Source: an uncultured Methanosarcinales archaeon
Lineage (GTDB): Archaea > Nanobdellota > Nanobdellia > Woesearchaeales > JAGLXL01
Assembly (NCBI GenBank): GCA_964384425.1
Contig: CAYLKE010000003.1
Span: 26,147 to 90,146 of the forward strand
Direction: 5' to 3'
DNA: 64,000 nucleotides
Each line of letters begins with the position of its first letter. The first letter of the stretch is position 1. This document shows, piece after piece, positions 43,422-58,419 of the stretch. A program made the translations under genes and the position numbers. Under the pieces are notes generated by a model. The model saw nothing but the letters and a program-made list of their open reading frames with translations, did not search any database and was not told the DNA's origin.

Positions 43422-43871
43422 ATGAAAAACTTAACTAAATTCCTAAAATATGCAAAAAAGAAAGCATATGCTTCGAAATTAACTTTTCCTAAGAAGACAA
43501 TTTTTAATGGTAAACGACATATAATTAAAAAAGATGATTTGATTTATATTGATACTTATTATGGAGATAAAACATTTTCAGGTAAGGAAGTTATATTAAT
43601 TAAAAAATCTCCTGTTTGGTCTATGGTTTATTATGGAGGTATTAAAGATAATGACTTAAATAAAAAAGATATTTACAAATTCTTAAAATATTGTTTAAGA
43701 GATATTCCAGATACATTTCCAATAAGAGGGAAAAACAATATTGTTAAAAATAGATTCAAATATGTAAATAAATGGAAAGGGGATTTAAAATCATTTGAAG
43801 GAAACGAAAGGATTTATTTTAAAGAAAAATTAGTGTATTCTTTGAGATATATTGGTGGAAAAATCAATTAA
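43422..43871 (+). CDS. Hypothetical protein (DUF5680-like by recollection)
   Basis: The pattern Y.D.Y.G...F.G.E.V......P.W.M.Y.GG is recalled from DUF5680-type proteins. The assignment is unverified. Confidence 0.3.
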   Translation: MKNLTKFLKYAKKKAYASKLTFPKKTIFNGKRHIIKKDDLIYIDTYYGDKTFSGKEVILIKKSPVWSMVYYGGIKDNDLNKKDIYKFLKYCLRDIPDTFPIRGKNNIVKNRFKYVNKWKGDLKSFEGNERIYFKEKLVYSLRYIGGKIN

Positions 43872-43872
43872 A

Positions 43873-43981
43873 TATAGAAAACTTAGAAAATAAATTCAAG
43901 ATAACAGACAAGAAGTTTTTCTTTATCATAGAAGATCTGAAAAGAGAGGAATTTATGGGGAATCCTAATCTAATTAATTAA
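43873..43981 (+). pseudogene. Orphan 3' fragment of the Lrp/AsnC gene
   Basis: Its 5' part is identical to copy B (37336..37416). Its 3' part and downstream 17 nt are identical to copy A (34553..34599). It encodes ...EEFMGNPNLIN*. Confidence 0.85.
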
Positions 43982-44002
43982 TTTTTTATTTTGTTTTTGT
44001 TT

Positions 44003-44107
44003 ATTATGATTTATAAATTCCTCGCTAGTACTTGTCCAGTGTGTCCAGTGGAATCATTCCGAATAATTGTTAGAAGTGTTTTTAAAAAATATTTCTTAAG
44101 AAAAGTT
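44003..44107. repeat. Junction repeat A, copy 1
   Basis: attatgatttataaattcctcgctagtacttgtccagtgtgtccagtggaa + hairpin ggaat-c-attcc + ..ttgttagaagtgtttttaaaaaatatttcttaagaaaagtt, ending at a start codon (44108). Confidence 0.85.
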
Positions 44108-44761
44108 ATGGAAAACCGAAAACTATTTAAATGTTTAAATAATATAAACAATTGTTTAAAAATGTTAAACATAATAAATAAAGGTTATAAAAAGATATTG
44201 AAGTTATTTTATGATAATAGAAAGAGTTTTCATCTTAGGGAAATTGCTAAAAAAACTTCTCTTAATGAAAATAGTGCATATCGTTTTCTTAATGTTTTAG
44301 AAAAAGAAAACATATTAAAATCAAATAAAAAAGCTAATCTTAAGCTTTTTTCATTAAATAAAAACAATAAAGTTTATTCTTTGTTGTCTTGTTTTGATAT
44401 TGAAAGATATGAAAAACTTCCTTCTATAAAAAAACAAGCAATAGGATATTTTTTAGAAAAATTAGATAAAAAACCATTTATAGTGATACTATTTGGTTCA
44501 ACAGCAAAAGAAACTTATAGAAAAGATTCAGATATTGATTTGTTTTTAATAGTCAATGAAAAGATAAATACTAGAAAAGCAAAAAATTACACTGATTCAC
44601 AAACAGCACAAATAATAAATGATTTTCAAATAAGTTTTAATGATTTTAAAAAAGATCTTAAAATGAAATCAGAAAAAGTTCTGCAATCAGCTCTTGAAAC
44701 AGGATATCCCATATTAAATCATATTGAGTTTTATAGGTGTGTTGAAGATGAAGAAATATGA
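44108..44761 (+). CDS. wHTH + MNT nucleotidyltransferase (pair 2)
   Basis: LFGSTAKETYRKDSDIDLFLI. Start moved to the ATG at 44108, because the track's N-terminal extension translates repeat A. Confidence 0.75.
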   Translation: MENRKLFKCLNNINNCLKMLNIINKGYKKILKLFYDNRKSFHLREIAKKTSLNENSAYRFLNVLEKENILKSNKKANLKLFSLNKNNKVYSLLSCFDIERYEKLPSIKKQAIGYFLEKLDKKPFIVILFGSTAKETYRKDSDIDLFLIVNEKINTRKAKNYTDSQTAQIINDFQISFNDFKKDLKMKSEKVLQSALETGYPILNHIEFYRCVEDEEI

Positions 44762-45263
44762 TATTGATAGATATCTTGATAATAAAAATCTTGTTGAAAA
44801 AAAGATAAATGAATTTATTAAGGATAAGGTAATTGTTAAAGAAACTTCTCCATCTGAGATAAAAGGACATATGCTAAAAGCAAGTCATAATCTTGAATTT
44901 ATAAAAAAGATAAGTAAAACAGAATTTAAAGATTGGGCTGTTACTGGATGTTATTATGCTTCGTATCATGCAGCATTGGCTTTGATAATGACAAGAGGAT
45001 ATTCTTCTAAAAATCATCTTGCCACTTTTTTAATAATAGTAAAAGAATTCTATAAAAAAGGATTAGAAAAAGAAGATATTGAAGTTTTTTCAGACATGTT
45101 GGATTATGAAGATATATTATTTTATGTTGAGTTTAAAAACAAAAGAGAAGATGCAAGTTATTCAACTAATCTTTTATTTGATAAAAAAGATGTTGAAGAA
45201 TTAAGAATAAAAGCAGTATTGTTTGTTTCTAAGATAAGATCTATTATTAGGAATAATTCTTAA
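44748..45263 (+). CDS. HEPN-domain protein (pair 2)
   Basis: GCYYASYHAALAL...SKNH...REDASY. ATG at 44748 overlaps the MNT stop. Confidence 0.65.
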   Translation: MKKYDIDRYLDNKNLVEKKINEFIKDKVIVKETSPSEIKGHMLKASHNLEFIKKISKTEFKDWAVTGCYYASYHAALALIMTRGYSSKNHLATFLIIVKEFYKKGLEKEDIEVFSDMLDYEDILFYVEFKNKREDASYSTNLLFDKKDVEELRIKAVLFVSKIRSIIRNNS

Positions 45264-45295
45264 ATATTTAATAATAGATTTAAAATTTTTGATGT

Positions 45296-45649
45296 TTATT
45301 TTTTGAGATTAGTCCATTTTATATTTTTTTCTCCTCTAGAAATAGATATTTTTTTACTCATATCATCACTTACAGAATACTTTATATATTCATCAAAATA
45401 ACAATCAATATAATTTAATTTATTTTTTAAATACCAAATTATTTGTTCATAAAATTCTGGAAGACAAACTATACAATATCCCTTTCCCAAATAATCACCT
45501 TCTTTAATTTTATTGTCAACAATACTTTCTGCAAATTCTTTAGCTTTTATAAGGTCTTTTTCAAATTCTTTATGAGAGACATCTTTAACCAATATATTAT
45601 AGTCATATTCTCCTTCATACCAATGATATTCTATTTTAAAAATTCTCAT
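45296..45649 (-). CDS. Hypothetical protein
   Basis: 117-aa ORF with no recognised motif. Confidence 0.35.
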   Translation of the reverse strand: MRIFKIEYHWYEGEYDYNILVKDVSHKEFEKDLIKAKEFAESIVDNKIKEGDYLGKGYCIVCLPEFYEQIIWYLKNKLNYIDCYFDEYIKYSVSDDMSKKISISRGEKNIKWTNLKK

Positions 45650-45684
45650 TTTTCCCCTCCTTTTTAATAATAATATTTTTAGAA

Positions 45685-45843
45685 ATTATGATTTATAAAT
45701 TCCTCGCTAGTACTTGTCCAGTGTGTCCAGTGGAAAGATACTAAAAACTCAAAAGTTTTGGTATCTTAAAAAATCTTTGATTTTTGTAAGATTTCCGATT
45801 AATTGTTAGAATCACTTTTAAAAGAATTTTCTTAAGAAAAGTT
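45685..45843. repeat. Junction repeat A, copy 2 (with 53-nt insertion 45738..45790 in the hairpin loop)
   Basis: First 50 nt are identical to copy 1. The insertion is flanked by aagat/aagat and contains a 12-bp stem (agatactaaaac/gttttggtatct, one U-G pair). The repeat runs into the radC start. Confidence 0.85.
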
Positions 45844-46500
45844 ATGAAAATAAAAGAGATGTGTGTAAGGGAAAGACCAAGAGAGAGGTTGAAGAAAGAT
45901 GGAGTTAGTTGTTTGAGTAATTCTGAGTTGTTAGGTGTTGTTTTAGGCAATGGAAGTAGAAAAGAGAATGTTGTTGATATGTGTAATAGATTGATTTCTA
46001 ATATTGGAATGAAGAAGTTGAGTAAAAGTAGTTTGAAAGAGTTGCAAGAGTTTCATGGAGTTGGTTTTTGTAAAGCTTGTCAGATACTTGCTTTGTTTGA
46101 GTTTTGTAAACGGGTGGAAGTTATTAAGAATGAAAGAGTTATTATTAAAAGTGCTAAAGATGTTTTTAATTATATTTATCCAAAAGTTAAAGATTTAGAT
46201 AAAGAACATTTTATTGTTTTGATGTTAGACACAAGAAATGGAATTATTAAAGATGAAGTTGTATCAGTGGGAACGTTAAATAGTTCTTTAATTCATCCTC
46301 GTGAAGTGTTTAAGTCAGCTATAAAAGAAAGTGCAAATGCATTGATCCTCGTTCACAACCATCCATCAGGTGATTGTAGTCCATCAGATGAAGATATTGA
46401 TGTTACAAAGAAGTTGATAAAAGTTGGAGAGGTTGTTGGAATAAAAGTACTAGATCATGTAATTGTTGGAGGAGGGAAATGGTGGAGTTGGGATGGATGA
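45844..46500 (+). CDS. radC: RadC-like JAB-domain protein
   Basis: N-terminal RERPRERL...LSNSELLGVVLG, HhH-like region, JAMM motif HNHPSG...PS..D. Confidence 0.85.
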   Translation: MKIKEMCVRERPRERLKKDGVSCLSNSELLGVVLGNGSRKENVVDMCNRLISNIGMKKLSKSSLKELQEFHGVGFCKACQILALFEFCKRVEVIKNERVIIKSAKDVFNYIYPKVKDLDKEHFIVLMLDTRNGIIKDEVVSVGTLNSSLIHPREVFKSAIKESANALILVHNHPSGDCSPSDEDIDVTKKLIKVGEVVGIKVLDHVIVGGGKWWSWDG

Positions 46501-46515
46501 GTTATGTTTTTTCTT

Positions 46516-47019
46516 TTATTCATTTTGTATGATATCTTCTGTTTTTTGAATAAAATCTAAAACTTGTTTTTCATATAAATTTATTAATTTATTTGTAAAA
46601 TATTTATCTGTTTGATAACTTGCATGGTGTCTATCTGATTTAAGATTTGTGTATAATTCTGCATCTTCTTTGTTAATGGATAAGTTATTAATCAAGTCAG
46701 CTTCTTTTTTTGTTATACTATATTCTTTTATTAAAATAAGGATTGTTGCATAATGATTTTTAGAAGAATAATTTTTATTAGTTATTAATGCTAAAGCTGA
46801 ATGATAAAGTGCATAATATAAAATAACAATAAGCCAATCATTGAAATTGCTTTGATTTTTGTTTATTTTATAGAAATTTATATTGTGCTTTGCTTTTTTT
46901 AAATATGATTTAACTAATTCATTGTTTTCGTCAATTTTAAGAATGTGTTTTTTCTTTATGAAAAATTGCAATTCTTTTTCTAAATATTTTTTATTAATAA
47001 ATAATTCTTCAATATCCAT
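46516..47019 (-). CDS. HEPN-domain protein (pair 3)
   Basis: YYALYHSALAL...SKNH...DRHHASY. Confidence 0.65.
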   Translation of the reverse strand: MDIEELFINKKYLEKELQFFIKKKHILKIDENNELVKSYLKKAKHNINFYKINKNQSNFNDWLIVILYYALYHSALALITNKNYSSKNHYATILILIKEYSITKKEADLINNLSINKEDAELYTNLKSDRHHASYQTDKYFTNKLINLYEKQVLDFIQKTEDIIQNE

Positions 47020-47581
47020 CTAAAAGCACCTCATAAAAATTCTGTTCTTTATATATTGGAAATCCTGTTTTTCTTGCTTGAATAATAACATCATCAATAT
47101 TTTTTATAAATTCACGAATATTATATTGAAAAATATTAATTGGGTAATTTGATATTAATTCTCCTTCTTTTTTATTTTTATTTATATTTATTTTTTTATG
47201 TGAGATTATTAATAAATCTATATCACTTCCTTCTCTTTCTTGTTTTCGTGATGCAGAACCAAAAAGAATTATTGTGTATATTCCTTTGTTTATGTTTTTT
47301 AGGAAGTTATTTAGTGGTATTCTTACTCCTCTGTTTAATTCTTGGAATTTTTTTATTGCTAGTTCAGAAAATTTCAATTCAAATAGTTTTTTATTTTTTA
47401 TTGTATAATAGGTATTTGATTTAGTTTTTTCTTTAGATAATATTTTATTTTTTATTAGTTTATTTAATGTATTAGTCAAAGAACTATCTGATAGTTTTGA
47501 AAGTTCTTTTATTTCATTAAAATATAATCTACTTTTTTTACTCTTGAAATATGCTTTATATACTTTTTCTTCAGGTCTCAT
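47009..47581 (-). CDS. wHTH + MNT nucleotidyltransferase (pair 3)
   Basis: LFGSASRKQEREGSDIDLLII. Palindromic TATA atttataaat at 47603..47612, 26 nt upstream of the ATG. Confidence 0.75.
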   Translation of the reverse strand: MRPEEKVYKAYFKSKKSRLYFNEIKELSKLSDSSLTNTLNKLIKNKILSKEKTKSNTYYTIKNKKLFELKFSELAIKKFQELNRGVRIPLNNFLKNINKGIYTIILFGSASRKQEREGSDIDLLIISHKKININKNKKEGELISNYPINIFQYNIREFIKNIDDVIIQARKTGFPIYKEQNFYEVLLDGY

Positions 47582-47611
47582 GTTATGTTAATAAAAGTCC
47601 TTATTTATAAA

Positions 47612-47707
47612 TGCTTCTGTTTTTGAAGTGATTGCTTCTGTTTTTGAAGTGTTAAGTTTAGTTTATATGTATTAAGTTTAGTTTATACATATTAAGTTTA
47701 GTTTATA
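47612..47707. repeat. Two sets of short tandem repeats upstream of the MNT promoter
   Basis: tgcttctgtttttgaagtg x2 (47612..47630 and 47633..47651). ttaagtttagtttata x3 with 20-nt period (47652, 47672, 47692). Confidence 0.85.
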
Positions 47708-47786
47708 CTAAAGTAAGCTCTGATTTTTGTAGACCACCATCTTAATATCTTGATTTTTCTTATGAATATATTTCAATTACAAAAAT

Positions 47787-48639
47787 TTAGTATAATTTAT
47801 TCAATATTGTTTTTGTGTTTTTATTAAGTTTTGAGAAAGCAAACCATTTCTTACCAAGATCCTTTAATGATGCACCTATATGATAAAGTTCTTTGTTATC
47901 TATTATCATAAATCTATCATGAGAATCTTTAAATTGTTTTATAGTTATTTTTGAATATTGGTTATTATGTTTTTCTAAATCTAGTTTTAGTTGTTTTGTT
48001 AATTCTTTAGTGTATATAATTACCTTAACATTTTTTTCTTTTTGTAAATAATGTTAGAACAGAATCATCAATGTAATTATCTATTAATATTATTTCTTTT
48101 TTAGCTGAACGAATTAAGTCTGAAATGAAAATATGTGCATCAAATACTTGTCCATTAAAGAATACTCCTTTTGATGGTTTGATATCTTTGCTTTCAATCG
48201 CTTTGAAAACTTTTTCAAACTTTTGATCATGTTCTAGTTGTTTATGTTCTATTTTATCTAATCTTTGATAAGTTAAAAGATTAGATGAAATCATCTTTTT
48301 TATATGAACAAAAGCACGAATTATAAGAATATTGACACTAATAGCTGTTTCACTATTTAAAACACCTGAAAGCATTGCAACACCATGTTCTGTAAATGCG
48401 TAAGGAAAACTAGTTGAATGTTTCAAGTTTTTGAACCGGTCACAATTTGTGACCAGTTTGTTTTTTTCTTTTTCTGATAATTGAAACATGAAATCGTTTG
48501 GAAATCTTATAAGGTTTCTTTTAACAGCCTGATTTAACACTTTAGTGCTTACTCCATATAACTCAGCTAAATCCCCATCTAACATAACTTGTTTTCCTCT
48601 AATTGTTTGGATTTTATTTTTAATAGTTATTTCATTCAT
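47787..48639 (-). pseudogene. ORF6N-domain DNA-binding protein gene, frameshifted in a poly-A run near 48025..48035
   Basis: The track ORF 48025..48639 ends ...LFTKRKKC*. A shifted frame continues KNVKVIIYTKELTKQLKLDLEKHNNQYSKITIKQFKDSHDRFMIIDNKELYHIGASLKDLGKKWFAFSK...*, the expected C-terminal half. Confidence 0.6.
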
Positions 48640-48660
48640 ATAACTTAAAGTAGAAAATTA

Positions 48661-48815
48661 ATTTATAAATTTCTCGCTAGTGGTTGTCCAGTGTGTCCAG
48701 TGGAAAGGTTTCCGATTAGTTGTTAGAAGTGCTTTTAAAAAATATTTTTTTAATTAGTTATATGAAGATAAAAGAGATGTGTGTAAGGGAGAGGCCTAGA
48801 GAGAGGTTGAGGAAA
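48661..48815. repeat. Junction repeat A, copy 3, including an 18-codon radC 5' fragment (48762..48815)
   Basis: atttataaatttctcgctagtggttgtccagtgtgtccagtggaaaggtttccgattagttgttagaagtg..., then atgaagataaaagagatgtgtgtaagggagaggcctagagagaggttgaggaaa (MKIKEMCVRERPRERLRK). Homology to radC stops there. Confidence 0.85.
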
Positions 48816-48853
48816 TTTATCATTTTGTCTGAGCCAACAAAATGCCTTATTAT

Positions 48854-49291
48854 TTAATCATTAGTAATTTTCTTATATATTTTATTTGTAAAATCCATTG
48901 CTTTTTCTGCATATTCTTTATCTAAAATAGTTCCATAATATAACATTCCATTTCTAAAATATCTTAATTGATCAGTAAATTGTACGTCTTTTTCATTAAA
49001 TCCTAAAATCCTCATATATGAAACCTCTGCTTCATGCGCTCCATGTCCAGAAGAATTATATCCTTTCAATAACATCTTGGCTCTTATAGACTCCATAATA
49101 ACATCATAACAAGATTTAACAATATCATTTGCATTTTCTTCATCAATACCAAATACTTTTATTTTTTTAAGTAAAAAATTATAAGATTTTTCTGATTCTT
49201 TTATAAGAAATTCTGCTCTTGATTTATCAGGAGATTGTTTTTTTACAATACCTTCTTCTATGAATTCTTTAAATTGCTTTATTGCTTTCAT
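48854..49291 (-). CDS. HEPN-domain protein (pair 4)
   Basis: Helical 145-aa protein whose ATG overlaps the stop of the MNT gene (ATGA). RYFRNGMLYYG motif region. Confidence 0.55.
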   Translation of the reverse strand: MKAIKQFKEFIEEGIVKKQSPDKSRAEFLIKESEKSYNFLLKKIKVFGIDEENANDIVKSCYDVIMESIRAKMLLKGYNSSGHGAHEAEVSYMRILGFNEKDVQFTDQLRYFRNGMLYYGTILDKEYAEKAMDFTNKIYKKITND

Positions 49292-49845
49292 AATTCAAAT
49301 CCTCCAATAAGCACAATCCCATTTGCTAGATTTTCTTTTAGATTTTTATGTATTTTTTTAAATGATTCATAAAAGTTGATATTTATTTCTCTTTCTAATA
49401 ATTTTTCATATTTATTTAAATTCGTATCTTTTTCTTTTCTTCCTATAATTGCAATATCAATATCTGAATTTATTGTGTCTTCACCTCTTGCATAACTTCC
49501 AAAAAGAATAATTGTTGCTCCAGCATATTCTTTTTCTAAATAATCAACTAAATTAGATTCATATACTTGTAGAAGGTTATCAACTCTCTTTAATTGCATG
49601 ACTTCATGATTTTGTGTATTTAATGATATTGACCATCTTTTTGTTTCTTTGTCTTTGTTTAATTTGATAAGATTATTTTTTTCTAATAAAGGAATTGCTT
49701 TTATTATGGCTGGCTGAGAAACATTTAATGCTAGTGCTATCTGTCTTTGATTTAGAACAGAACCTGTTTTAATGAATAATAATCTCAAAATCTGATTCTG
49801 TAAAGATGTTAACTTAAGTTTATATATGTTTACCATTGTTAACAT
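49288..49845 (-). CDS. wHTH + MNT nucleotidyltransferase (pair 4)
   Basis: LFGSYARGEDTINSDIDIAII. tgttaac-type 10-nt periodic repeats span its start (49837..49863). Confidence 0.75.
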   Translation of the reverse strand: MLTMVNIYKLKLTSLQNQILRLLFIKTGSVLNQRQIALALNVSQPAIIKAIPLLEKNNLIKLNKDKETKRWSISLNTQNHEVMQLKRVDNLLQVYESNLVDYLEKEYAGATIILFGSYARGEDTINSDIDIAIIGRKEKDTNLNKYEKLLEREININFYESFKKIHKNLKENLANGIVLIGGFEL

Positions 49846-49890
49846 ATGTTAACTTATGTTAATATATAAATGTTTTGGTTTTTTGATTAA

Positions 49891-49964
49891 AAGAATTCCT
49901 GATGGTTGTTAGAAGTGTTTTTAAAAGAATTTTCTTAAGAAAAATCATGAAGATAAAAGATATG
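49891..49964. repeat. Junction repeat A, partial copy 4, with radC start remnant (ATG 49947)
   Basis: gaattcctgatggttgttagaagtgtttttaaaagaattttcttaagaaaaatcatgaagataaaagatatg. It lacks the ctcgctagt...ccagtgg half. Confidence 0.75.
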
Positions 49965-49972
49965 AATGAGAC

Positions 49973-50473
49973 TTAGATTTTTTGGAATTTCTCTCTTATA
50001 TTCTTTATTTGTTGAATATTTAAGTTGTTAGCATAAGCTAATATTTTAATATTAAATTCTTTTGCAGTTTTAATTCTTTCAGAACATTTTTCTTTATTTA
50101 TTGGTTCAGAATCAGTTACAGGTACATAATATTGATTATCTATTCTATCTGTTTTAAATTCTGAAAAAATGTCATGTAATTCATCTAATTCAAATATTTT
50201 TTTTATCAACTTTACTGCTGCTGAATGATTTTCACATTTTATTCCACATTTAAAAAATAATGACAATACAGAATTATATATTGAATAGTATGCTTCTGAA
50301 ACTGAATTTTCATAAATCCCTGCACTATATGCCAATTCAGCAACTTTTATACATTTATCACTTTTTATTAAATAAGATTTTGATATTTCTTCAGAAGGTT
50401 CAACTAATTCTAAAACTTCTTTTCTTTTTAATTTAGTCAAAAAACTTAATTTTTTCATAATATTTTTCTCCAC
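49973..50473 (-). CDS. HEPN-domain protein (pair 5)
   Basis: EAYYSIYNSVLSL...CENH...DRIDNQYY. Confidence 0.6.
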   Translation of the reverse strand: MEKNIMKKLSFLTKLKRKEVLELVEPSEEISKSYLIKSDKCIKVAELAYSAGIYENSVSEAYYSIYNSVLSLFFKCGIKCENHSAAVKLIKKIFELDELHDIFSEFKTDRIDNQYYVPVTDSEPINKEKCSERIKTAKEFNIKILAYANNLNIQQIKNIREKFQKI

Positions 50474-50984
50474 CTTTTAATATTACATGATTTTTTATTA
50501 TCTCTTTTATTAATAAATTATTTGGATTAAATTTTCCTATCTTTATACTTAGTGAGGGGTAGATCTCTTGTGTAGCTTTTTTTATTTTTTGACTTGTTGT
50601 ATCTATATAAATATCTATATCACTATCTTTTTTTTCTTTTCCTTTTGCATAGCTTCCAAATAAGATTATCATTGAATTAGAACTTTTAATTAATTGTTTA
50701 ACAATTGGCTCTAAAAAAGTGTGTTTTCTTAATAATCTTATTAATTTATAATTTTCAGCATTTAATAATAATGATTTTGAAATAATGTTTTTTTTAATAA
50801 AATAAACATGGTTTTTCCCTACTTTCCTATAATCTACTGCATTAATATCTCTTAATTCTTTTAATACAGATTGTATTCTAGTGAGAGAAGTATTAAGTAT
50901 TTTTGCAAGTTCTCTCTGATGCATCTCTGATTTTAATAGAGAAAGTAAAACTTCATATGTGTAATTGACTTTTATTTGTTTCAT
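50433..50984 (-). CDS. wHTH + MNT nucleotidyltransferase (pair 5)
   Basis: LFGSYAKGKEKKDSDIDIYID with an N-terminal wHTH (HQRELAKILNTSLTRIQSVLKEL). Confidence 0.75.
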   Translation of the reverse strand: MKQIKVNYTYEVLLSLLKSEMHQRELAKILNTSLTRIQSVLKELRDINAVDYRKVGKNHVYFIKKNIISKSLLLNAENYKLIRLLRKHTFLEPIVKQLIKSSNSMIILFGSYAKGKEKKDSDIDIYIDTTSQKIKKATQEIYPSLSIKIGKFNPNNLLIKEIIKNHVILKGGEKYYEKIKFFD

Positions 50985-51004
50985 ATGACTTTTAAATAAG
51001 TCAT

Positions 51005-51060
51005 AGTATTTAAATGTTTCTTTAATTTGATGTTTTGGGGTGTTGTTAGAAATTAGTATA
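51005..51060. repeat. Junction repeat A, partial copy (gttgttagaaatt variant) plus shared minus-strand promoter block
   Basis: agtatttaaatgtttctttaattt...gttgttagaaatt parallels 52418..52476. Confidence 0.6.
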
Positions 51061-51154
51061 ATTTATTTGATTGTTTAAAGTCACGTAATTTCAAATTATT
51101 AGTTTATATTTCAATTTATTAAATAATTATTTCTCTTTGATTAATTTCTTTTTT

Positions 51155-51598
51155 CTAAGAAAGTTCTGTTTCATAAGCAATTAATTTATTTCTAGCTTTG
51201 ATTCTCTCTTGTAATGAAATTCTTTCTTCTATTAATTCTTGTTTTCTTGTTTGAATAGCAAAATAAGACTGAGCAAATGATATCTCATCTTTTCTTGAAT
51301 CTCCATTTTGAGTAATTAAATAACATGCATATCTTGTAAGCATAATGTCTTGTATTTCTCTTTCTGCTCCAGAACCTAATTGGACCTTTTTGTCTGCTTC
51401 GACAAAATGGTCTAATATATCTACTCCTGAATTTTTACAAGATTCTTTAGCTTTTTTTATAACACCTAAAAACTTTCTCCATTCAACATAGCCCAATAAC
51501 TTTTGTAAATCTCTAGCAAACCAAAATTCAACTCCTTCTGTTTCATTAGAATGGTCTTCAAATAGCTTTTTGAGTTTTATTATTAATTCTTTGTTCAT
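51155..51598 (-). CDS. DinD-like (DNA-damage-inducible protein D family) N-terminal fragment
   Basis: WFARDLQKLLGY.EWRKF...AKESCKNSG..ILDHF....K.V..GSGA.R.I.DI.LTRYACYL..QNGD......AQSYFAIQTRKQEL closely parallels E. coli DinD. It stops at ~147 aa, whereas DinD is ~270 aa. Confidence 0.65.
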   Translation of the reverse strand: MNKELIIKLKKLFEDHSNETEGVEFWFARDLQKLLGYVEWRKFLGVIKKAKESCKNSGVDILDHFVEADKKVQLGSGAEREIQDIMLTRYACYLITQNGDSRKDEISFAQSYFAIQTRKQELIEERISLQERIKARNKLIAYETELS

Positions 51599-51618
51599 AT
51601 CAATTGTTAGTTATTATT

Positions 51619-51719
51619 CTTTATAAATTCCTCGCTAGTGGTTGTCCAGTGTGTCCAGTGGAAAGATTTCCGGATGATTGTTAGAAGTGTTTTTAAAAAA
51701 TATTTTTATAATTTTTTTA
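51619..51719. repeat. Junction repeat A, copy 5
   Basis: ctttataaattcctcgctagtggttgtccagtgtgtccagtggaaagatttccggatgattgttagaagtgtttttaaaaaatattttt..., ending at the PIN start codon. Its TATA is centred 26 nt from the ATG of the minus-strand DinD fragment. Confidence 0.85.
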
Positions 51720-52139
51720 ATGAAATATTATTTAGATACTTGTATTTGGAGAGATCATTATGAAAATAGAATTGGTTTTAATGGAAGACCGTTAGGAGAC
51801 TATGCTACTAAGCTTTTTTCTAAAATTATGAAAAATAAAGATATTGTTTTATTTTCATCGTTTATTAACTCTGAATTAAAAATAAAATATAATCAAAAAG
51901 AAATTAATGACATGATCAAAATTTTATCTTTAATAAAAATTCTTAAATATGTAAAAATTAATCAGAATAATATTGATGAAGCAAAATTATTATCAAAAGA
52001 AAGAAGAATACCTATGGGTGATGCTTTACATGCTATTTTAGCTAGAAATAATAAAGCAGTTCTTATTACTCAAGATATGAAAGATTATAATAAATTAAGA
52101 GATATTGCAATTATTAAAAAACCAGAAGAAATAATCTAA
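51720..52139 (+). CDS. PIN-domain (VapC-like) nuclease
   Basis: YYLDTCIW (Asp1), GDALHA, LITQD. Start set at the ATG at 51720. Confidence 0.65.
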   Translation: MKYYLDTCIWRDHYENRIGFNGRPLGDYATKLFSKIMKNKDIVLFSSFINSELKIKYNQKEINDMIKILSLIKILKYVKINQNNIDEAKLLSKERRIPMGDALHAILARNNKAVLITQDMKDYNKLRDIAIIKKPEEII

Positions 52140-52399
52140 AGTTTCCACCCATTTTCTTTTGCTAATTCTATTAATGCTTGTTCTCTTATTTGTTTTCTTT
52201 CTTTATTAGTTGTTTTAATTTTGGATTTTCCTTTAAAACTCATAAATTTATTGATTAGTTCTTCTCTAGTTAAGTTTTCAAGTTTATCTCTTATTGCATC
52301 TCTAATAAATTCAGTTCTAGTGCTAAAATTATGTTTTTTAAGAGTATTATCTACATTATTTAACATATTTTCATCAATTTTTAAGCTTATTGTTTCCAT
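52136..52399 (-). CDS. Ribbon-helix-helix (CopG-like) protein
   Basis: ISLKIDENMLNNVDNTLKKHNFSTRTEFIRDAIRDKL. Convergent with the PIN gene, with overlapping 3' ends. Confidence 0.6.
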   Translation of the reverse strand: METISLKIDENMLNNVDNTLKKHNFSTRTEFIRDAIRDKLENLTREELINKFMSFKGKSKIKTTNKERKQIREQALIELAKENGWKL

Positions 52400-52417
52400 A
52401 ATACTTAGTAATACAAA

Positions 52418-52493
52418 GTATTATTTAAATATTTCTTTAATTTAAATGGAATGTTTCCGGATGATTGTTAGAAATTATAATATTTCTTAAGAG
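52418..52493. repeat. Junction repeat A, partial copy 6
   Basis: agtattatttaaatatttctttaattt + tggaatgtttccggatgattgttagaaattataatatttcttaagag. Confidence 0.7.
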
Positions 52494-52693
52494 TAGTAGA
52501 TTAATAAAATATTTTAAGAAAATAATTCAGATACTGATAAGTGAATATATTATTTTAAATATTTCAAGATTATTGTGCTATTTGGTGAGATTGGTTTACA
52601 TTATTATGTTGATGATTGTGGAAATGTTTGTGTTAAGAGATGAAGATTGAGTTTAACTGGAATTGAAACTATTTTATGGATTTTAGGTGTGTT

Positions 52694-52825
52694 ATGAAAA
52701 AATTAAAAGATTATTTAATGGATAAGGAAGATTTTATTGAAGTAATAAAATGGGTTTTTTATGTATTAATATTTTCATTTGCACTTGCATTAATCTTTGA
52801 AGGAGTACAATATTTGTTAAAATGA
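52694..52825 (+). CDS. 43-aa single-TM small protein
   Basis: Hand-found: MKKLKDYLMDKEDFIEVIKWVFYVLIFSFALALIFEGVQYLLK. Its stop overlaps the next ATG (ATGA). Confidence 0.35.
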   Translation: MKKLKDYLMDKEDFIEVIKWVFYVLIFSFALALIFEGVQYLLK

Positions 52826-53094
52826 TTAGAACTAAGAAAAAAGAAACAAAAGCAATTCTGTTTTTTAATGGATTTATGATCTTATTGATGTTTGTAATGT
52901 TCATAACAGGTGTATTAAGTAAAGTTAATTTTTATTTTATAACAATAATCTTTGTATCTTTGATAATAATTTTAATATCTTTGTTGAATATTAATAAAAT
53001 CAATAAATGGATGTTGTGGCATTGGGATGATATTACATTTGTTGCTTGGTTGTGTGTTTCTGGATATTTATTTTTGAAAGCTAGAGGAGTTTGA
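52822..53094 (+). CDS. Small membrane protein (3 predicted TM)
   Basis: Hydrophobic segments ILFFNGFMILLMFVMFITGV, FYFITIIFVSLIIILISLL and FVAWLCVSGYLF. Confidence 0.4.
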   Translation: MIRTKKKETKAILFFNGFMILLMFVMFITGVLSKVNFYFITIIFVSLIIILISLLNINKINKWMLWHWDDITFVAWLCVSGYLFLKARGV

Positions 53095-53205
53095 GAGGTT
53101 TGAGAATAAAAGAATAGTTGTTTTGAATCTAAAATAGGTGGGGTGTTGTTGAGAGGGTTGTTGAGAGGGGATGGACGAGTTAAATTTTTCTTTTATTTAT
53201 TTTAA
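53086..53205 (+). pseudogene. Decayed radC 3' end plus its downstream T-rich tail
   Basis: gtttgagaggtttgagaataaaagaatag ... ggggatggacgagttaaatttttcttttatttatttt parallels radC 46424..46526 (gttggagaggttgttggaataaaagtactag ... tgggatggatgagttatgttttttcttttattcatttt). Contains stops. Confidence 0.6.
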
Positions 53206-53212
53206 AGGATTT

Positions 53213-53401
53213 TTAATTTGAGATTAAATCAATATATTTCTTACATGTTTTTTCATTATTATATTTTTTTACAATCTTTTTATTTCCATATAATTTTGAA
53301 TCATCTAAAGCAACAACAAAAAAAGAATTTTTATCTAGTATCACCTTCCAAAGCCCATCATCTTCATCTAAAAAATATTTATAACCTTTATATTTTTTCA
53401 T
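53213..53401 (-). CDS. Hypothetical small protein
   Basis: 62-aa ORF with no motif. Confidence 0.3.
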   Translation of the reverse strand: MKKYKGYKYFLDEDDGLWKVILDKNSFFVVALDDSKLYGNKKIVKKYNNEKTCKKYIDLISN

Positions 53402-53460: not shown

Positions 53461-55341
53461 TTATTTTTGCTTTAATCTTTTCTTTAAATAATCAGATAAT
53501 TTTTTATCACAGCAATAAATATAACATCCTTTTTGTCCTCTAGTCATCAATGTTCGATATGTGTTTCTAATTACTTGGTCTGCTAATTTTTTAGCCTTTT
53601 TAGGATTTTCTTTAAGCATTTTTTTTAAACCCCACAAAGATCTATCTGTTGAAGCTCTTTTTGTATGGTCTGTTACAACTTTATCATTTTCGTATCTTAA
53701 GTCTTCTCCAATTATTACACCAACATAATCAAATTCTAATCCTTGTGATGTATGAATACATCCTGCTTGTTTAACAGAATCTGGATCTATTGCCCAAGTA
53801 GAACTATTTCCTAAATTCCAACTCATTTTAAAATCATCCCCAATAACAATATCATAAATATTAGGATTATTTTTTTCTTTAGTTATCCATTTCCAACAAT
53901 AACCAGCCACAATTCTTGATTTATTATTTAATTTATTTTTCTTTTCTATTTCATTTTGCATTTCTTTAGGATTATCAAAAACTTTAATCTCATAATTCAT
54001 CTCAAATCCATCTGCATTTGCTGTTTCTCTTATTCCTAAAACATCATCTAACCAAGCTAAATAGCCATCTGATCCATTACATCTGAATTGAGAATCTAGT
54101 TTATGAAAGAATATTTTTGCATTTAATCTATTTGCAAACTTTTCTATTTCTTCTTTAGAACCAATATCAAAAATATCAACTTTTTGATCTTCATCAATAA
54201 AAAATACACTAAATTTAGAAGCATGAATTATTTCTTTTATCTGATTTTCACCTTTATTTCTAAATAATCCTGATTTTTCATTTAGTCTGTGAGCTTCATC
54301 CACAACTAATGCAGGAAAAACATTCTTTTCAGAATCATGAAATGCTCCAGAACCTCTAAATAAGTGGTTAATTTGACCATTTTTGATATTACCTTTTAAT
54401 TTTGAACAATAAACATTTCTCGGAGATGCGTTTTTTGAAATATATTGAGATGTTATGTTTTTTTCAATAAATTTAACCAATAAATTAATAGCAAGAACAG
54501 ACTTTCCTGTTCCTGGACCCCCTTCAACAACCAATACTCTTTTTTTATCATCTTTGTATGATTTAAGAGCAAGTTTCAATGCTTCTTCATATACAAGTTT
54601 TTGAGAATCAATCATAATAAATTCTTGATTTCCTTGTAGCATGCTACAAACAGAATCTTGTAATGATTTTGAAGGTTTAATTTTTCCATTATTTATTTCA
54701 TATAAATTTTGTTTTTTATCTCCAAATTTTATATGTTTTTTAATAAATTCTCTCAGTTTTAATGCATCTCCTTTCAAGTATAATGGAGCAGCATCAACAT
54801 AGTAAGAATATATATTATTATCTAATTCATCTCTAAATTCTTTTTCAAAATTATGTAAATAAGCACAAGGAAGTAATTTAATTTCACCTTTTTGAATAGT
54901 TTCATTAAAATCACTTATAAATTTAAAATAAGACCATGCTTGATAAGAAGGATGTGTTGTTTCTCTTATTCCTCCACCTAAAAATGTTTTAACAATACCA
55001 TCTTTATCTTCAACTCTTGTAGTATCTTTACCAGACCATTGTTTTAATTCAATAATTATAACATTTCCATTCTTTTTTTCATCATATCCAGAAATAATAA
55101 AATCAATTCTTTTAGATGTTAAAGGAATCTTAAATTCGATAGCAATCCCAGAATCATCAGGAATAGTATCACATGATAATACTTTATACATATAGTTTAA
55201 TGAATTTTTCCAAGATCTAACTTCAGATTCGCTTCCAACATGTAAATTATTTCTTAAGTAAGCACTTCTAATCTTATCTACTATTGTTTCATTAAAAGAA
55301 TCATTCAAAAATTCGCTTTTTGTTGCTTCATATATTAACAT
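53461..55341 (-). CDS. DUF2075-type nuclease-helicase (N-terminal PD-(D/E)xK-like + P-loop SF1-like ATPase)
   Basis: IDFIISG...IIIELKQW (D...ExK), GGPGTGKS (Walker A), VVDEAHRL (Walker B), C-terminal GLEFDYVGVIIG. Start set at MLIYEATK (55341), 1 nt after the MazG stop. Confidence 0.7.
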   Translation of the reverse strand: MLIYEATKSEFLNDSFNETIVDKIRSAYLRNNLHVGSESEVRSWKNSLNYMYKVLSCDTIPDDSGIAIEFKIPLTSKRIDFIISGYDEKKNGNVIIIELKQWSGKDTTRVEDKDGIVKTFLGGGIRETTHPSYQAWSYFKFISDFNETIQKGEIKLLPCAYLHNFEKEFRDELDNNIYSYYVDAAPLYLKGDALKLREFIKKHIKFGDKKQNLYEINNGKIKPSKSLQDSVCSMLQGNQEFIMIDSQKLVYEEALKLALKSYKDDKKRVLVVEGGPGTGKSVLAINLLVKFIEKNITSQYISKNASPRNVYCSKLKGNIKNGQINHLFRGSGAFHDSEKNVFPALVVDEAHRLNEKSGLFRNKGENQIKEIIHASKFSVFFIDEDQKVDIFDIGSKEEIEKFANRLNAKIFFHKLDSQFRCNGSDGYLAWLDDVLGIRETANADGFEMNYEIKVFDNPKEMQNEIEKKNKLNNKSRIVAGYCWKWITKEKNNPNIYDIVIGDDFKMSWNLGNSSTWAIDPDSVKQAGCIHTSQGLEFDYVGVIIGEDLRYENDKVVTDHTKRASTDRSLWGLKKMLKENPKKAKKLADQVIRNTYRTLMTRGQKGCYIYCCDKKLSDYLKKRLKQK

Positions 55342-55342
55342 T

Positions 55343-55705
55343 TTAGTATTCCGAATATTTTTTATTACATCCTTTTGCTTTTTCAACAGGATATTTTTTA
55401 TTGTTTTTTTCAATCTTATCAAATAATTCTGTAGCCAAATCGATATCATATCTTTGTGCTAATCTCAATAAGAAATAAAATACATCTGCCATTTCTTCAG
55501 TTAATTCCTTTCTTTTATTTTCATCTTTAAACATTTCTTTGATTTGTTCTTCTGATTTAAATCTAAAATGTTGTAATAATTCAGATGCTTCTGTAACAAT
55601 ACCTATAGATAATTCCTTTGCATTGTGAAATTGATCCCAATCTCTCACTTCACAGAAATCTTTTACTTTTTCTTTAAGTTGATTTATGTTAGTTTTGTAA
55701 TCCAT
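55343..55705 (-). CDS. MazG-like nucleoside triphosphate pyrophosphohydrolase
   Basis: IVTEASELLQHF and LTEEMADVFYFLLRLA (EExxE/D metal-binding helices). ~120 aa all-alpha NTP-PPase type. Confidence 0.7.
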   Translation of the reverse strand: MDYKTNINQLKEKVKDFCEVRDWDQFHNAKELSIGIVTEASELLQHFRFKSEEQIKEMFKDENKRKELTEEMADVFYFLLRLAQRYDIDLATELFDKIEKNNKKYPVEKAKGCNKKYSEY

Positions 55706-55871
55706 GAATGGAATAAGAAGGTTTTGTTTAAAAATATTGTGAAAACATAAAGCACAGTATTTAAATACTTTTTATACAATAAAAATTATACTCCTATTAG
55801 TGTAAGTTTAATTGGTGTTAATCTCAATAATTTTTTGGGCTACGAACTGTTTAAGGGGGAGAGAAAACTAA

Positions 55872-56432
55872 TTATCTTAAATCTATGATAGTACTTCCAT
55901 TAACATATTTAACTCTTTCAATAGATGTTAAATTGTTATTAGCGACAATAGTTTGATTCTTTTCATTGGTAATTTCCTTTATTCCATCTTTTTTATGTAA
56001 AATAATTGGAGATGATAATCTTGAAAAAAAATTTATCCAATCAAAATCATAAGATATTTCAATATTACAATTGTCAATAGGGGCATTTAGTGACTTAATG
56101 TTTAATAAAATATCTTCATCCATACTAAACCTGTTACATTCAAAGGTATTTATTCCTCTTTTTAAAGAACAATTCGAACTAGATTCTTCTATTTTTAAAT
56201 CATATAATCCCAAATTACATGTATCTTCAATTTTAACACTTAAACTATTTATTGTTTTAAAACCTTTATGATGTATAAAGAAAGTTATATCTAATCCCTT
56301 ATTTAAATCGTTTGTTTTATAAAATCCAATAGCATTAAGATCAAAGGCAGAGTTGACAAAAACATATGTTACTGATAACGTTATGATTGCAATAAAAATT
56401 GCTCCTAAAATTGTTGCAAAGACTTTTTTCAT
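55872..56432 (-). CDS. Membrane-anchored hypothetical protein
   Basis: N-terminal TM (VFATILGAIFIAIITLSVTYVF). Confidence 0.4.
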   Translation of the reverse strand: MKKVFATILGAIFIAIITLSVTYVFVNSAFDLNAIGFYKTNDLNKGLDITFFIHHKGFKTINSLSVKIEDTCNLGLYDLKIEESSSNCSLKRGINTFECNRFSMDEDILLNIKSLNAPIDNCNIEISYDFDWINFFSRLSSPIILHKKDGIKEITNEKNQTIVANNNLTSIERVKYVNGSTIIDLR

Positions 56433-56484
56433 TTTATCCTTATTATTGGTTAAAAGTTATAATTCTTTCTATTTTGTAATTTGT

Positions 56485-56754
56485 TTAATTGAATATTTTT
56501 CTAAAATTCTTTTTAATTTTATTTATAATTCTTTTGCCTGCCATCAAAAGAGTTAATATCTCTAGAATGATAAATACAAAAGCAAGAATTAAAAAAAATA
56601 TTGCCCAATTAGTCATATTTTTTGTTGCATTCCAAAACGCTACAAGAATCATAGCTCCAATAATATATTGGCCAGGAACACCATACATTGCAAGCAAGAT
56701 TTCTACAATGTCTTTTTTTATTTGTTTATTCATATTGATATAAATTATTATCAT
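56485..56754 (-). CDS. Small multi-TM hypothetical protein
   Basis: Two to three hydrophobic segments in 89 aa. Confidence 0.35.
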   Translation of the reverse strand: MIIIYINMNKQIKKDIVEILLAMYGVPGQYIIGAMILVAFWNATKNMTNWAIFFLILAFVFIILEILTLLMAGKRIINKIKKNFRKIFN

Positions 56755-56771
56755 AAATATAAATTTATCTT

Positions 56772-57383
56772 TTAATTTTTATAACTAATTAATTTTAATG
56801 AAATATCATTTGGGTTAATGGTATTTTTTCTTTCAATATGAAACTTAATTTTATATGGGGCAAAATTATCTCCACTAAAAATTAAAATAATGTCATATTC
56901 TCCTGGTTCAATAATAGATTTAATTCCAATACTAACATCATGGTATTTTTCTAAATGGATATCTGAATCAACATTTAATGCTAAAGCAAGATCCAAAAAT
57001 TCGGATTCCCCACGTGCAATATTCAGTCTTTCACCACTTGCTTGATTTATTATTGCTTCTGGACGACCGGCCCACCTAAGAGGAAATCCTTGATATTCGC
57101 CATATTTTTTTCCATTTTTTAGGATAATTTGGATTTGACATCGGCAATTAATTGCGGATGCTCTACCATCATTTTTTACCATAAATCTTAAATATGTTCC
57201 TTTAAAATTAGGATTGTTATTAATAATTGTATTTTCTTTTCTATATGGACTTAATTCAGAATATTTAAATTTTAATGCAGGTTTTATGAACAAAGGTAAA
57301 ATAAAGTCTTTTAATAATGTGAATAAAATTGCAATTATTGATAAGACAATTGGGATCCATATCACATATGTTGATTCAGGCAT
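56772..57383 (-). CDS. Membrane-anchored hypothetical protein
   Basis: N-terminal TM (YVIWIPIVLSIIAILFTLL) followed by a beta-rich domain. Confidence 0.4.
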   Translation of the reverse strand: MPESTYVIWIPIVLSIIAILFTLLKDFILPLFIKPALKFKYSELSPYRKENTIINNNPNFKGTYLRFMVKNDGRASAINCRCQIQIILKNGKKYGEYQGFPLRWAGRPEAIINQASGERLNIARGESEFLDLALALNVDSDIHLEKYHDVSIGIKSIIEPGEYDIILIFSGDNFAPYKIKFHIERKNTINPNDISLKLISYKN

Positions 57384-57418
57384 ATGTTCATTTTTAATTT
57401 CAAATATATAAGTATTTC

Positions 57419-57556
57419 TCGCCCCCAGTATCTTGTTCTAGAAGACTCACTTTGTTCGCACGATTGGACGCCCAAAAAATTACTTCTCACTATCGTTCGA
57501 CACTACGTGGAGATTAACAGGCCCGATGTTAATCTTAATCGAGAAAGAGGGCTAAG
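57419..57556. repeat. GC-rich structured intergenic element E1
   Basis: Core acttctcactatcgttcgac (57482..57501), hairpin gattaaca-ggcccga-tgttaatc (57512..57534), arm tcgagaaagagggc (57539..57552). Markedly GC-richer than its surroundings. Confidence 0.7.
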
Positions 57557-57569
57557 AAAATAAGTATAA

Positions 57570-58343
57570 TTAGACAACAAATGATCTCAAAAATGAACCT
57601 AAATCTTTCTTTTTAATATTCTGGTCCAAAATAGATTGACTAATAACAATTCCATATTTATTAAATAATGCCTGAAGCTTGTTAATAAAATCTCCCATTA
57701 AACAAATTTTATTAAATACTGAATCTACATTAATCCGCTTTTTTTTATAAAATATTTTTTTATTGTTGAAAGTATAATTCTCATGAGCAACACTATTTCG
57801 CAAATCCCTATTAAGAAATTTCAATAAATAATTATAAAAAAACAGATTATGTTTTTTAAATAATAATTCTACATGTTCTGCAGTCCTAATTTGCTCAATA
57901 ACTTGCTGATTATTGTTCGAAATTACATATCGTTTTCCAGATTTAATTTTTTTTGCTATTGGCTTTAAAAAATTAATTAAACAATCGAAATGACTTGCAT
58001 AAAAATGAAGAATTGTATAAATAAACGTTCCTCTTTGAATTTGGTTATTATTTACAAAATCTTTCAGTATTATCAAGTCCATAGCATAATTTTTAAGATT
58101 ATTAGTTCGTAATTGTAATTTATTCATGTCCTTAAAAAAATCTTTTACAGAATAATCAATATTTGAATCATTTATAGCATCATGATATAATAAATCGAGA
58201 TTAAATCGAGAGCTTTGTATTTTCAAATTATGAATCTTCCTAATTGAATTCGCTTTTTTTCTTGCATCTATGGATAGAGAATAATATTTTTTAAATTGTA
58301 CCAAATCCTTTTGTACATCTTGATGAAATTTGCTTACTTTCAT
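57570..58343 (-). CDS. HEPN/Abi-like protein (RNxxAH motif)
   Basis: LNRDLRNSVAHENY fits the Rx4H HEPN/Abi_2-type motif in a helical 257-aa protein. Confidence 0.45.
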   Translation of the reverse strand: MKVSKFHQDVQKDLVQFKKYYSLSIDARKKANSIRKIHNLKIQSSRFNLDLLYHDAINDSNIDYSVKDFFKDMNKLQLRTNNLKNYAMDLIILKDFVNNNQIQRGTFIYTILHFYASHFDCLINFLKPIAKKIKSGKRYVISNNNQQVIEQIRTAEHVELLFKKHNLFFYNYLLKFLNRDLRNSVAHENYTFNNKKIFYKKKRINVDSVFNKICLMGDFINKLQALFNKYGIVISQSILDQNIKKKDLGSFLRSFVV

Positions 58344-58419
58344 ATCATTATGAATATTATAAGTTATTTATATTTCTTTTGAATAATTATACTCATCTAT
58401 CTTATTCTTAATGTATCAC

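Follow-up and report, generated by a model that had tools for sequence, protein, structure and literature searches.

Between about 44 and 53 kb of the window, by which we mean the whole 64-kb stretch of contig CAYLKE010000003.1 (from an uncultured archaeon) that was analysed, toxin-antitoxin and defence genes are gathered in an island, and one sequence of ~110 bp, hereafter the junction, recurs between them (Table 1). An earlier note on this DNA had likened the island to an integron cassette array or a cluster of attC sites; the question treated here is what the junction is. According to Pfam and PADLOC, the genes on its right encode MNT, RadC and PIN proteins, and those on its left an ORF6N-family protein, a DinD-like protein and an unknown protein.

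The gene content had been read correctly in the earlier note. Four MNT genes with N-terminal helix-turn-helix (HTH) matches are each paired with a HEPN or HEPN-like gene (Pfam, PADLOC), as claimed, and the calls of radC, PIN and ribbon-helix-helix (RHH) genes stand. The two decayed genes that it had pointed out are also real: the ORF6N gene is a pseudogene, because a stop codon at 48025 ends it after 204 amino acids while the C-terminal part continues in frame as a remnant, and the Bro-N/DinD-like gene is truncated, because its 147-amino-acid product covers only the first half of a PADLOC profile (positions 1-148 of the 281 of PDC-S13) and its homologues bear the name DinD. Fragments of radC do lie at repeat boundaries, namely 5' fragments after copy C and after partial copy E; in the former, the sequence past the ~18 radC codons is unrelated to radC up to the stop codon.

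Table 1. Genes and junction copies of the island, in window coordinates (nt, nucleotides; aa, amino acids).
Feature	Position	Strand	Remarks
Junction copy A, full	44003..44110		TATA1 44010-44017; 20-mer 44032-44051; GGAATCATTCC 44050-44060; right half: TTGTTAGAAGTG 44067-44078, TATA2 TTTTTAAA 44079-44086, HTH-MNT ATG 44108
HTH-MNT + HEPN, pair 1	44108..45263	+	rightward from copy A
117-aa gene	45296..45649	-	leftward from copy B; no family match
Junction copy B, full	45685..45846		TATA1 45692-45699; 20-mer 45714-45733; 52-nt insertion 45740-45792; right half: TTGTTAGAA 45803-45811, TATA2 45815-45822, radC ATG 45844
radC, intact	45844..46500	+	UPF0758_N and RadC JAB domains
HEPN-like + MNT, pair 2	46516..47581	-	HEPN-like protein 37% identical to HEPN1
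ORF6N-family pseudogene	47787..48639	-	leftward from copy C
Junction copy C, full	48655..48764		TATA1 48662-48669; 20-mer 48684-48703; ORF6N start 48639; right half: TTGTTAGAAGTG 48720-48731, TATA2 48732-48739, radC-fragment ATG 48762
radC 5' fragment	48762..48857	+	first ~18 codons are radC (82% nt identity to 45816-45897)
HEPN-like (PADLOC PDC-M05B) + HTH-MNT, pair 3	48854..49845	-	own promoter
Partial copy E	49888..49949	+	right half only: AAAGAATTCC palindrome remnant, TTGTTAGAAGTG 49906-49917, TATA2
HEPN + HTH-MNT, pair 4	49973..50984	-	palindrome ATGACTT...AAGTCAT between TATA box and ATG
Partial copy F	51005..51054	+	type-2 left promoter (TATTTAAAT + GTTTCTTTAATTT) for MNT gene 50433-50984
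Bro-N/DinD-like gene, truncated	51155..51598	-	leftward from copy D
Junction copy D, full	51613..51722		TATA1 51620-51627; 20-mer 51642-51661; Bro-N/DinD-like start 51598; right half: TTGTTAGAAGTG 51678-51689, TATA2 51690-51697, PIN ATG 51720
PIN gene	51720-52139	+	convergent with the RHH gene, 4-nt overlap
RHH gene	52136-52399	-	convergent with the PIN gene
Partial copy G	52418..52476	+	type-2 left promoter for the RHH gene
Two small hydrophobic ORFs (49 and 90 aa)	52676..53094	+	downstream of partial copy G

The core of the junction is a 20-mer, TTGTCCAGTGTGTCCAGTGG, which is made of two abutting tandem copies of a 9-mer (TGTCCAGTG-TGTCCAGTG(G)). It occurs four times (starting at 44032, 45714, 48684 and 51642), always on the + strand and with no mismatch, and no further match with up to three mismatches exists within the 64 kb, where shuffles predict 0. 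In the full copies the elements follow one another in the order TTTATAAA (TATA1), TCCTCGCTAGTRS, 20-mer, GGAA-N3-4-TTCC palindrome, TTGTTAGAAGTG, T5A6 and ATG, which is the order that the earlier note had given. A second, exact 9-mer, TTGTTAGAA, is found at seven sites, all confined to the island (44067, 45803, 48720, 49906, 51043, 51678 and 52465), and the junction is therefore present in four full copies (A to D) and three partial ones (E to G), in line with the count of at least seven claimed before. The consensus is less uniform than was then thought: the order of elements holds, but copy B carries an insertion and F and G have another left half.

The copies differ in informative ways. Every full copy has two A/T octamers, which in copy A stand 61 nt apart. 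The insertion in copy B (52 nt, 45740-45792) breaks the GGAA...TTCC palindrome, is flanked by a 5-nt AAGAT duplication, contains two hairpins and is unique within the window; it may have been left behind by a very small mobile element. The partial copies retain the right-hand promoter only, their left sides being other promoters. In copy E, likeness to the full copies starts at the expected end of the 20-mer, the left side is the promoter of the MNT gene at 49288-49845, and a 9-codon radC stub begins at 49947. Copies F and G share a left half composed of TATTTAAAT and RTTTCTTTAATTT; in F, TTGTTAGAA (51043-51051) has no rightward gene behind it, and in G, TGGAATGTTTCC is followed by TTGTTAGAA (52465-52473) upstream of the small membrane-protein genes. 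Overall, nucleotide identity among the junctions is 75-100%, as compared with 27-37% amino-acid identity between the HEPN/MNT pairs, which bears out the earlier remark that conserved junctions separate unrelated cargo. Within the junction itself, TATA1 and the 20-mer are near-invariant among the window copies, as against ~75-85% identity for the remainder, a difference that points to purifying selection on the TATA1 and 20-mer element.

The island sequence itself is corroborated by independent short-read Logan contigs of the same sample (L031 and L032, SRR15425353), which match the island genes exactly. L031 begins within junction copy B and L032 stops ~100 nt before copy A, and the junction repeats appear to fragment assemblies.

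In the standard archaeal core promoter, the TATA box is centred near -26/-27 and a purine-rich transcription factor B recognition element (BRE) lies just upstream of it. The junction contains two such arrangements, facing away from each other. On the left, TATA1 (TTTATAAA) lies 22 nt from the leftward ATG in copy C (ORF6N) and 21 nt in copy D (DinD-like), and a purine-rich BRE-like stretch is found on its right. On the right, TATA2 (YTTTTAAA) lies 21-22 nt from the rightward ATG in all of copies A to D (MNT, radC, radC stub and PIN), and a BRE-like AGAAGTG within TTGTTAGAAGTG stands just upstream of it. Both sides of C and D thus have the leaderless spacing, as does the right side of A and of B, and one and the same junction sequence stands upstream of non-homologous genes on both sides; the promoters in both directions noticed earlier are borne out by this spacing. 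A gap of 21-22 nt would put the predicted start site on the ATG itself, which implies leaderless mRNAs. Shine-Dalgarno-like motifs precede few window genes (9 of 50), in keeping with an organism whose mRNAs are mostly leaderless; 36 of the 50 have an all-A/T octamer at -38 to -24.

Other repeats, distinct from the 20-mer, lie close to the promoters of MNT and RHH genes (49795-49867, 50985-51010 and 52400-52430). The first of these, in the promoter of pair 3, consists of two 33-nt TGTTAAC-rich direct repeats, and copies F and G differ in the palindrome that separates TATA box and ATG (ATGACTT...AAGTCAT and AATACTT...AAGTATT). These repeats and palindromes are probably autoregulatory operators.

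We searched for the exact 20-mer in a collection of species-representative (GTDB) genomes and in metagenomes, which yielded 8 loci in GTDB metagenome-assembled genomes (MAGs) and 22 metagenome loci, 26 non-redundant loci being used for statistics. The genome loci are labelled Nanoarchaeia, Woesearchaeota, 'Methanosarcinales' (three MAGs), unclassified archaeon and, for one contig, Ktedonobacteraceae, a match that may be due to chance; two or three of the matches (L011, L013) are evidently chance or coding. Each locus outside the window carries a single copy, the flanks are unrelated from one locus to another, and conservation is lacking past the downstream end of the 20-mer. In 20 of the 26 loci a TATA-like octamer precedes the 20-mer by 10-15 nt, as compared with 17% of random positions in the same loci (P=4e-11); in a control set of degenerate-pattern matches in viral contigs, almost all of them in coding regions, it was present in 2 of 22. 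The exact 20-mer is absent from the viral contigs, the plasmid and phage databases returned chance-level matches only, the motif was not found in the phage relatives of the DinD-like gene, and literature and RNA-family searches gave nothing matching the 20-mer.

These loci also indicate which way the element faces. The 6 nt between TATA box and 20-mer contain on average 4.4/6 pyrimidines on the top strand (the far side has 2.5/6 purines), so that the gap would be BRE-like for leftward transcription, away from the 20-mer. The distance from the 20-mer to the start of a leftward ORF is 45-47 nt in five independent locus families (L002/16, L007, L008/27, L010/14 and L020), which agrees with copies C and D of the window; on the right of the 20-mer, the 3' end of a convergent gene follows immediately in at least nine loci. 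Together, the BRE bias, the leftward ORF starts and the convergent 3' ends suggest that the 20-mer lies ~37-56 nt upstream of the predicted leftward start site.

The palindromic nature of TATA1 (ATTTATAAAT) leaves room for the opposite direction, in which it would fire rightward to give a ~40-nt small RNA that begins midway in the 20-mer and ends at the T5 run, the repeats being copies of a small RNA gene or of a 5' leader. The rightward predicted start would indeed fall inside the 20-mer, a T5 run follows ~40 nt on in copies A, C and D, and the inverted 9-mer present in some other loci could pair with the 5' end. However, the BRE-like bases point leftward, the window copies fold no better than shuffles (z +0.7 and -0.4), and the convergent gene ends and unconserved downstream sequence described above also count against such an RNA. 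Rfam (Rfam 15, including radC RF01754) has no match on the repeats at gathering threshold, nor at E<=10 over 43800-53400, and variant sites, described below, alter both direct repeats together. The small-RNA reading was set aside on its shuffle-like folds and the leftward orientation evidence, and we hold it to be highly improbable.

Genes behind the motif promoters encode LAGLIDADG, YhcG/DUF1016, Mrr-type, HATPase, KilA-N and Bro-N proteins and an RHH-methylase pair, and further a RadA operon, PrimPol, a DEAD-box (Hef-like) helicase, a thermosome gene and, in five lineages, an operon of small ORFs and Sua5. RHH genes adjoin the motif in L021 and L022. We also observed that a Sua5/YrdC gene is found 0.1-1.9 kb away from the 20-mer in these five lineages (L003, L005/L028, L006, L008/L027, L019 and L024), and that in at least three of them a conserved pair of tiny ORFs stands between the two, the first sharing ENI..LFE.Q...LT and the second having an acidic tail.

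Variant sites bear on how the element might be read. L005/L028 has a second site, TGACCAGTG-TGACCAGTGG, with unchanged TATA spacing and a leftward ATG at -44, L030 has an inverted TGTCCACTA-TGTCCACTG variant, and in both cases the two 9-mers are altered together. In a Woesearchaeota MAG, just one 9-mer stands before a Bro-N gene, at the same distance from the TATA box, and in L020 and L029 one more inverted unit and one more direct unit are found within 110 bp. Concerted change of the 9-mers, in arrays of both orientations, would be expected if one protein reads repeated half-sites, and would not be expected from RNA pairing.

The 20-mer could also be related to the origin recognition box (ORB) and be bound by Orc1/Cdc6, whether within a replication origin or to control transcription in an Orc1-dependent way. 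Copies B to D read GTCCAGTGGAAAG, whose 11-nt core TCCAGTGGAAA is common with the archaeal ORB consensus CTTCCAGTGGAAACGAAAGGGGT (PMC4153887). A TCCAGTGG(AAA) core is likewise shared with archaeal ORB and mini-ORB elements, a near-canonical TTCCAGTGGAAATGAAGG directly abuts the 20-mer in L022, and there are orc1/cdc6-like genes in the neighbourhood of the motif, at 1.6 kb in L006 and at 3.5 kb in L017. Most loci, however, share just the 7-8-nt core TCCAGTG(G), the G-string is missing, and the 20-mer differs from ORBs in its fixed distance to a TATA box and in having neither an unwinding element nor an adjacent orc1 gene. In the window, no inverted pair surrounds an A/T-rich unwinding element, the four copies are co-oriented with genes between them, and no orc1/cdc6-type family match was obtained among the ORFs scanned; in L006 and L017, the orc1 genes have no origin-like intergenic region. 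The Orc1 footprint is moreover much longer than the 9-bp repeat spacing. In view of the missing origin-like regions and inverted window pairs, the replication-origin reading was rejected despite the ORB core likeness, and an ORB-type element in either role is quite improbable in our estimate. In L022 (800-837), an A/T-rich TATCTATATAGAT repeat and T/G-rich tracts precede the near-canonical ORB that abuts the 20-mer, and this region may mark the origin of a small replicon.

The reading that we favour, with modest confidence, is that the ~110-bp junction is a compact divergent promoter region reused in a radC-linked toxin-antitoxin and defence island, and not a recombination site. It builds on the architecture, spacing and cross-genome conservation observed above, and treats as predictions made from sequence where transcription starts, that proteins bind and which way regulation goes. 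The left half would be a leftward core promoter, composed of TATA1 (TTTATAAA) and the BRE-like purines on its right, and the right half a rightward one, in which AGAAGTG within TTGTTAGAAGTG is followed by TATA2 and, 21-22 nt on, by the ATG. Between them, the tandem 9-mers and the GGAA-N3-4-TTCC palindrome would be binding sites of sequence-specific proteins. The 20-mer, at about -37 to -56 of the leftward promoter, would be a putative upstream regulator site, and this region is the usual position of archaeal upstream activator or regulator sites; candidate binding factors are an RHH protein or a winged-helix (Orc1/Cdc6-like) protein. The array itself may have arisen through module reuse, the promoter and the radC 5' end being copied at least three times (B, C, E) and left and right junction halves recombining with other promoters (E, F, G), all inside the radC-linked island.

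Several observations weigh against this reading. Copy A has no leftward gene, and the leftward gene of copy B is leadered, its gap between TATA1 and the start being 42 nt and containing GGAGG. The exact 20-mer is rare, with one copy each in only ~7 archaeal species genomes, and any broad regulon is therefore hypothetical. The motif was not found at four further DinD homologue loci (L069, L077, L079 and L082); the element is therefore not tied to the DinD/Bro-N family, and a general role as DinD/Bro-N promoter element was rejected, all four of these new loci lacking it. Promoter reuse alone also leaves identical junctions beside anciently diverged modules unexplained. Last, copies E and G have their left breakpoints no more than 3 nt from where the 20-mer ends on its right, and a site-specific crossover would give the same pattern.

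This returns us to recombination, in the integron form first proposed and in a modified one. The layout of an integron or attC cluster is not borne out. No Phage_integrase match was found among the window ORFs scanned by Pfam, 35.9-40.5 kb being covered by precomputed annotations only. When the four copies were folded as single-stranded DNA, on both strands, no end-to-end attC-like hairpin (57-141 nt) formed, only local mini-hairpins, and attC folding of the junction was rejected; the absence of canonical R''/R' pairing conceded in the earlier note is thus confirmed. Junction fold z-scores range from +1.0 to -2.2, and only the unrelated 52-nt insertion of copy B folds well. The nearest candidate for a GTTRRRY core, GTTAGAA, has A at the Y position, and the inverse core TTCTAAC is absent from the repeat. 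Most convergent gene ends overlap or lie up to ~40 nt apart (~100 nt at 51054-51155), and where 3' ends overlap or stand at most 40 nt apart there is therefore no space for a 57-141-nt attC. Integron cassettes are mostly promoterless and co-oriented and carry attC at the 3' end of each ORF, whereas the junctions sit at gene 5' ends with genes on both strands. A miniature inverted-repeat (MITE) or other small transposable element was also rejected, since neither terminal inverted repeats nor a target-site duplication were found around the junction, the insert of copy B being the only sequence with a 5-nt duplication.

In the modified form, which takes up the alternative of the earlier note (a different family of recombination sites), the tandem 9-mers would be the site of a tyrosine recombinase encoded elsewhere, making the island an integron- or CALIN-like platform (cluster of attC sites lacking an integron integrase) with a new family of att sites and exchange of modules at the 20-mer. 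Such a system could account for junctions that are all co-oriented and far more conserved than the modules between them, for genes truncated at module boundaries, for the partial copies E and G that begin within 3 nt of the 20-mer end, and for three copies of the promoter and radC 5' end beside anciently diverged toxin-antitoxin modules; the toxin-antitoxin and defence cargo resembles that of archaeal integrons (PMC9668308). Elsewhere, a recombinase gene (Phage_integrase/SAM_4, Xer-like) stands directly behind the motif-served gene in L014 and L020, and an inverted 9-mer occurs 70-72 nt downstream of the 20-mer start in L008/27, L009, L020, L029 and L030. Yet the points just made against attC sites (integrase, hairpin, GTTRRRY core and the 0-40 nt between most 3' gene ends) count here too, the modules run both ways, each with its own promoter, and outside the window the 20-mer is a single-copy element at a fixed TATA distance, next to RadA, Sua5 and thermosome genes. 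The recurrence of a single 20-mer at TATA boxes elsewhere fits a promoter-associated cis-element and not a cassette boundary, and recombination at the 9-mers strikes us as unlikely.

Archaeal integrons as described carry canonical attCs (Ghaly et al. 2022, PMC9668308). Compared with integrons and CALINs (PMC9668308), the island has in common co-oriented, conserved junctions between unrelated toxin-antitoxin and defence genes, no adjacent integrase, and junctions that within the genome are more alike than the cargo genes. It differs in having neither attC hairpin nor R''/R' cores, in placing its junctions at gene 5' ends, as divergent promoters, instead of 3' ends, in its two-way modules with their own promoters, and in a core that recurs singly at promoters of other archaea. 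A divergent promoter region that is reused finds a parallel in the putative mobile promoters, highly similar promoters that precede non-homologous genes in one genome (Nijveen, Matus-Garcia and van Passel 2012, PMC3575422). Here too, similar promoters stand upstream of non-homologous genes and related ones are found across taxa; the island module differs from them in being bidirectional, leaderless and of the archaeal BRE/TATA type, and in containing a 20-bp element exactly conserved across distant archaeal lineages.

Two further comparisons concern the element itself. RHH repressors bind operators made of tandem short repeats, such as the metboxes of MetJ and the heptads of the omega repressor. 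The two abutting 9-bp direct repeats, the direct and inverted arrays of L020, L029 and L030 and the RHH genes next to the motif in L021 and L022 recall such operators; the 20-mer, however, lies upstream of BRE/TATA and not over the start site. The bacterial radC RNA motif (RF01754) is associated with radC, KilA-N-type, methylase and integrase genes. The 20-mer is likewise a conserved non-coding element linked to genes of these kinds; it differs in having no Rfam match and no supported RNA structure, and in lying upstream of the promoter instead of in the 5' untranslated region.

The flank of radC was also compared with that of other genomes. Synteny with the closest RadC-bearing contig (L063) is limited to RadC, which is 62% identical, and otherwise to a 29% MazE-like match. 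In other DPANN MAGs (L062, 4001-7579; L064-L066, 4001-8660), convergent genes of defence or mobile type directly follow radC, encoding HsdM, HATPase_c_4, Bro-N and a fused methylase/specificity protein. The region 3' of radC may be a hotspot of variation that recurs among DPANN genomes.

The source organism is probably a DPANN-type archaeon, because its RadC shares 60-65% identity with the RadC proteins of Woesearchaeota, Nanoarchaeota and Nanohaloarchaea MAGs. The window, of 25% G+C, contains archaeal housekeeping genes (Spt5-NGN, FttA/aCPSF1, a proteasome subunit and class II aminoacyl-tRNA synthetases). No close relative of the organism was found in the databases, only fragmented contigs of the same sample; the next-best PurA match has 44% identity, and each island protein looked up forms a singleton cluster.

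Beyond the array as the earlier note had delimited it, further defence-type genes lie at 53461-62589 (a Schlafen-group-3-like helicase of 662 amino acids with a weak AbiO match, a MazG-like protein, a DUF4238 protein and several proteins of unknown family), and the island therefore extends beyond 44-53 kb. Right after the small membrane-protein genes, at 53140-53180, a G-rich direct repeat, GTTGTTGAGAGGG, occurs twice in a region that otherwise has 25% G+C. Outside the island, a fifth MNT gene with an adjoining, weakly HEPN-like gene (34602-35826) has neither junction repeat nor 20-mer. Two large genes with Ser/Thr protein-kinase domains (25755-28826 and 31344-33086) lie near a gene for a 310-amino-acid protein with a MazE/AbrB-type domain, and this kinase and MazE/AbrB content is unusual signalling for a small archaeal genome. 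A cluster of three tRNA genes is present on the - strand at 6049-6375; the middle one (6192-6293, 102 nt) has an Rfam match and was missed by ARAGORN, because it probably holds an intron of archaeal type.

Altogether, the integron label is to be dropped, and the cis-element is the part worth following. Bolder roles for the tandem 9-mer next to BRE/TATA can be imagined: it could be the site of a conserved archaeal factor, possibly of Orc1/Cdc6 type or RHH, that co-regulates repair (RadA, Hef-like helicase, PrimPol), nuclease and defence genes, as a counterpart of an SOS box or defence regulon, or a new recombination system could act at it and reshuffle modules, each with its promoter, in the defence islands of DPANN archaea; even taken jointly, these two are fairly unlikely. 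With two leaderless promoters placed back to back and regulatory sites between them, a concrete model replaces the tempting call of an archaeal integron. The analysis also reveals a 20-bp element, exactly conserved by TATA boxes in distant archaeal lineages, that had no match in our literature and RNA-family searches, and we know of almost no cis-regulatory motifs common to DPANN and other archaea. A defined motif of this kind gives direct access to a regulator in organisms that do not grow in pure culture. The island, for its part, shows how toxin-antitoxin and defence genes can be assembled around reused promoter modules, and suggests that the flank of radC is a possible variable hotspot in DPANN genomes.

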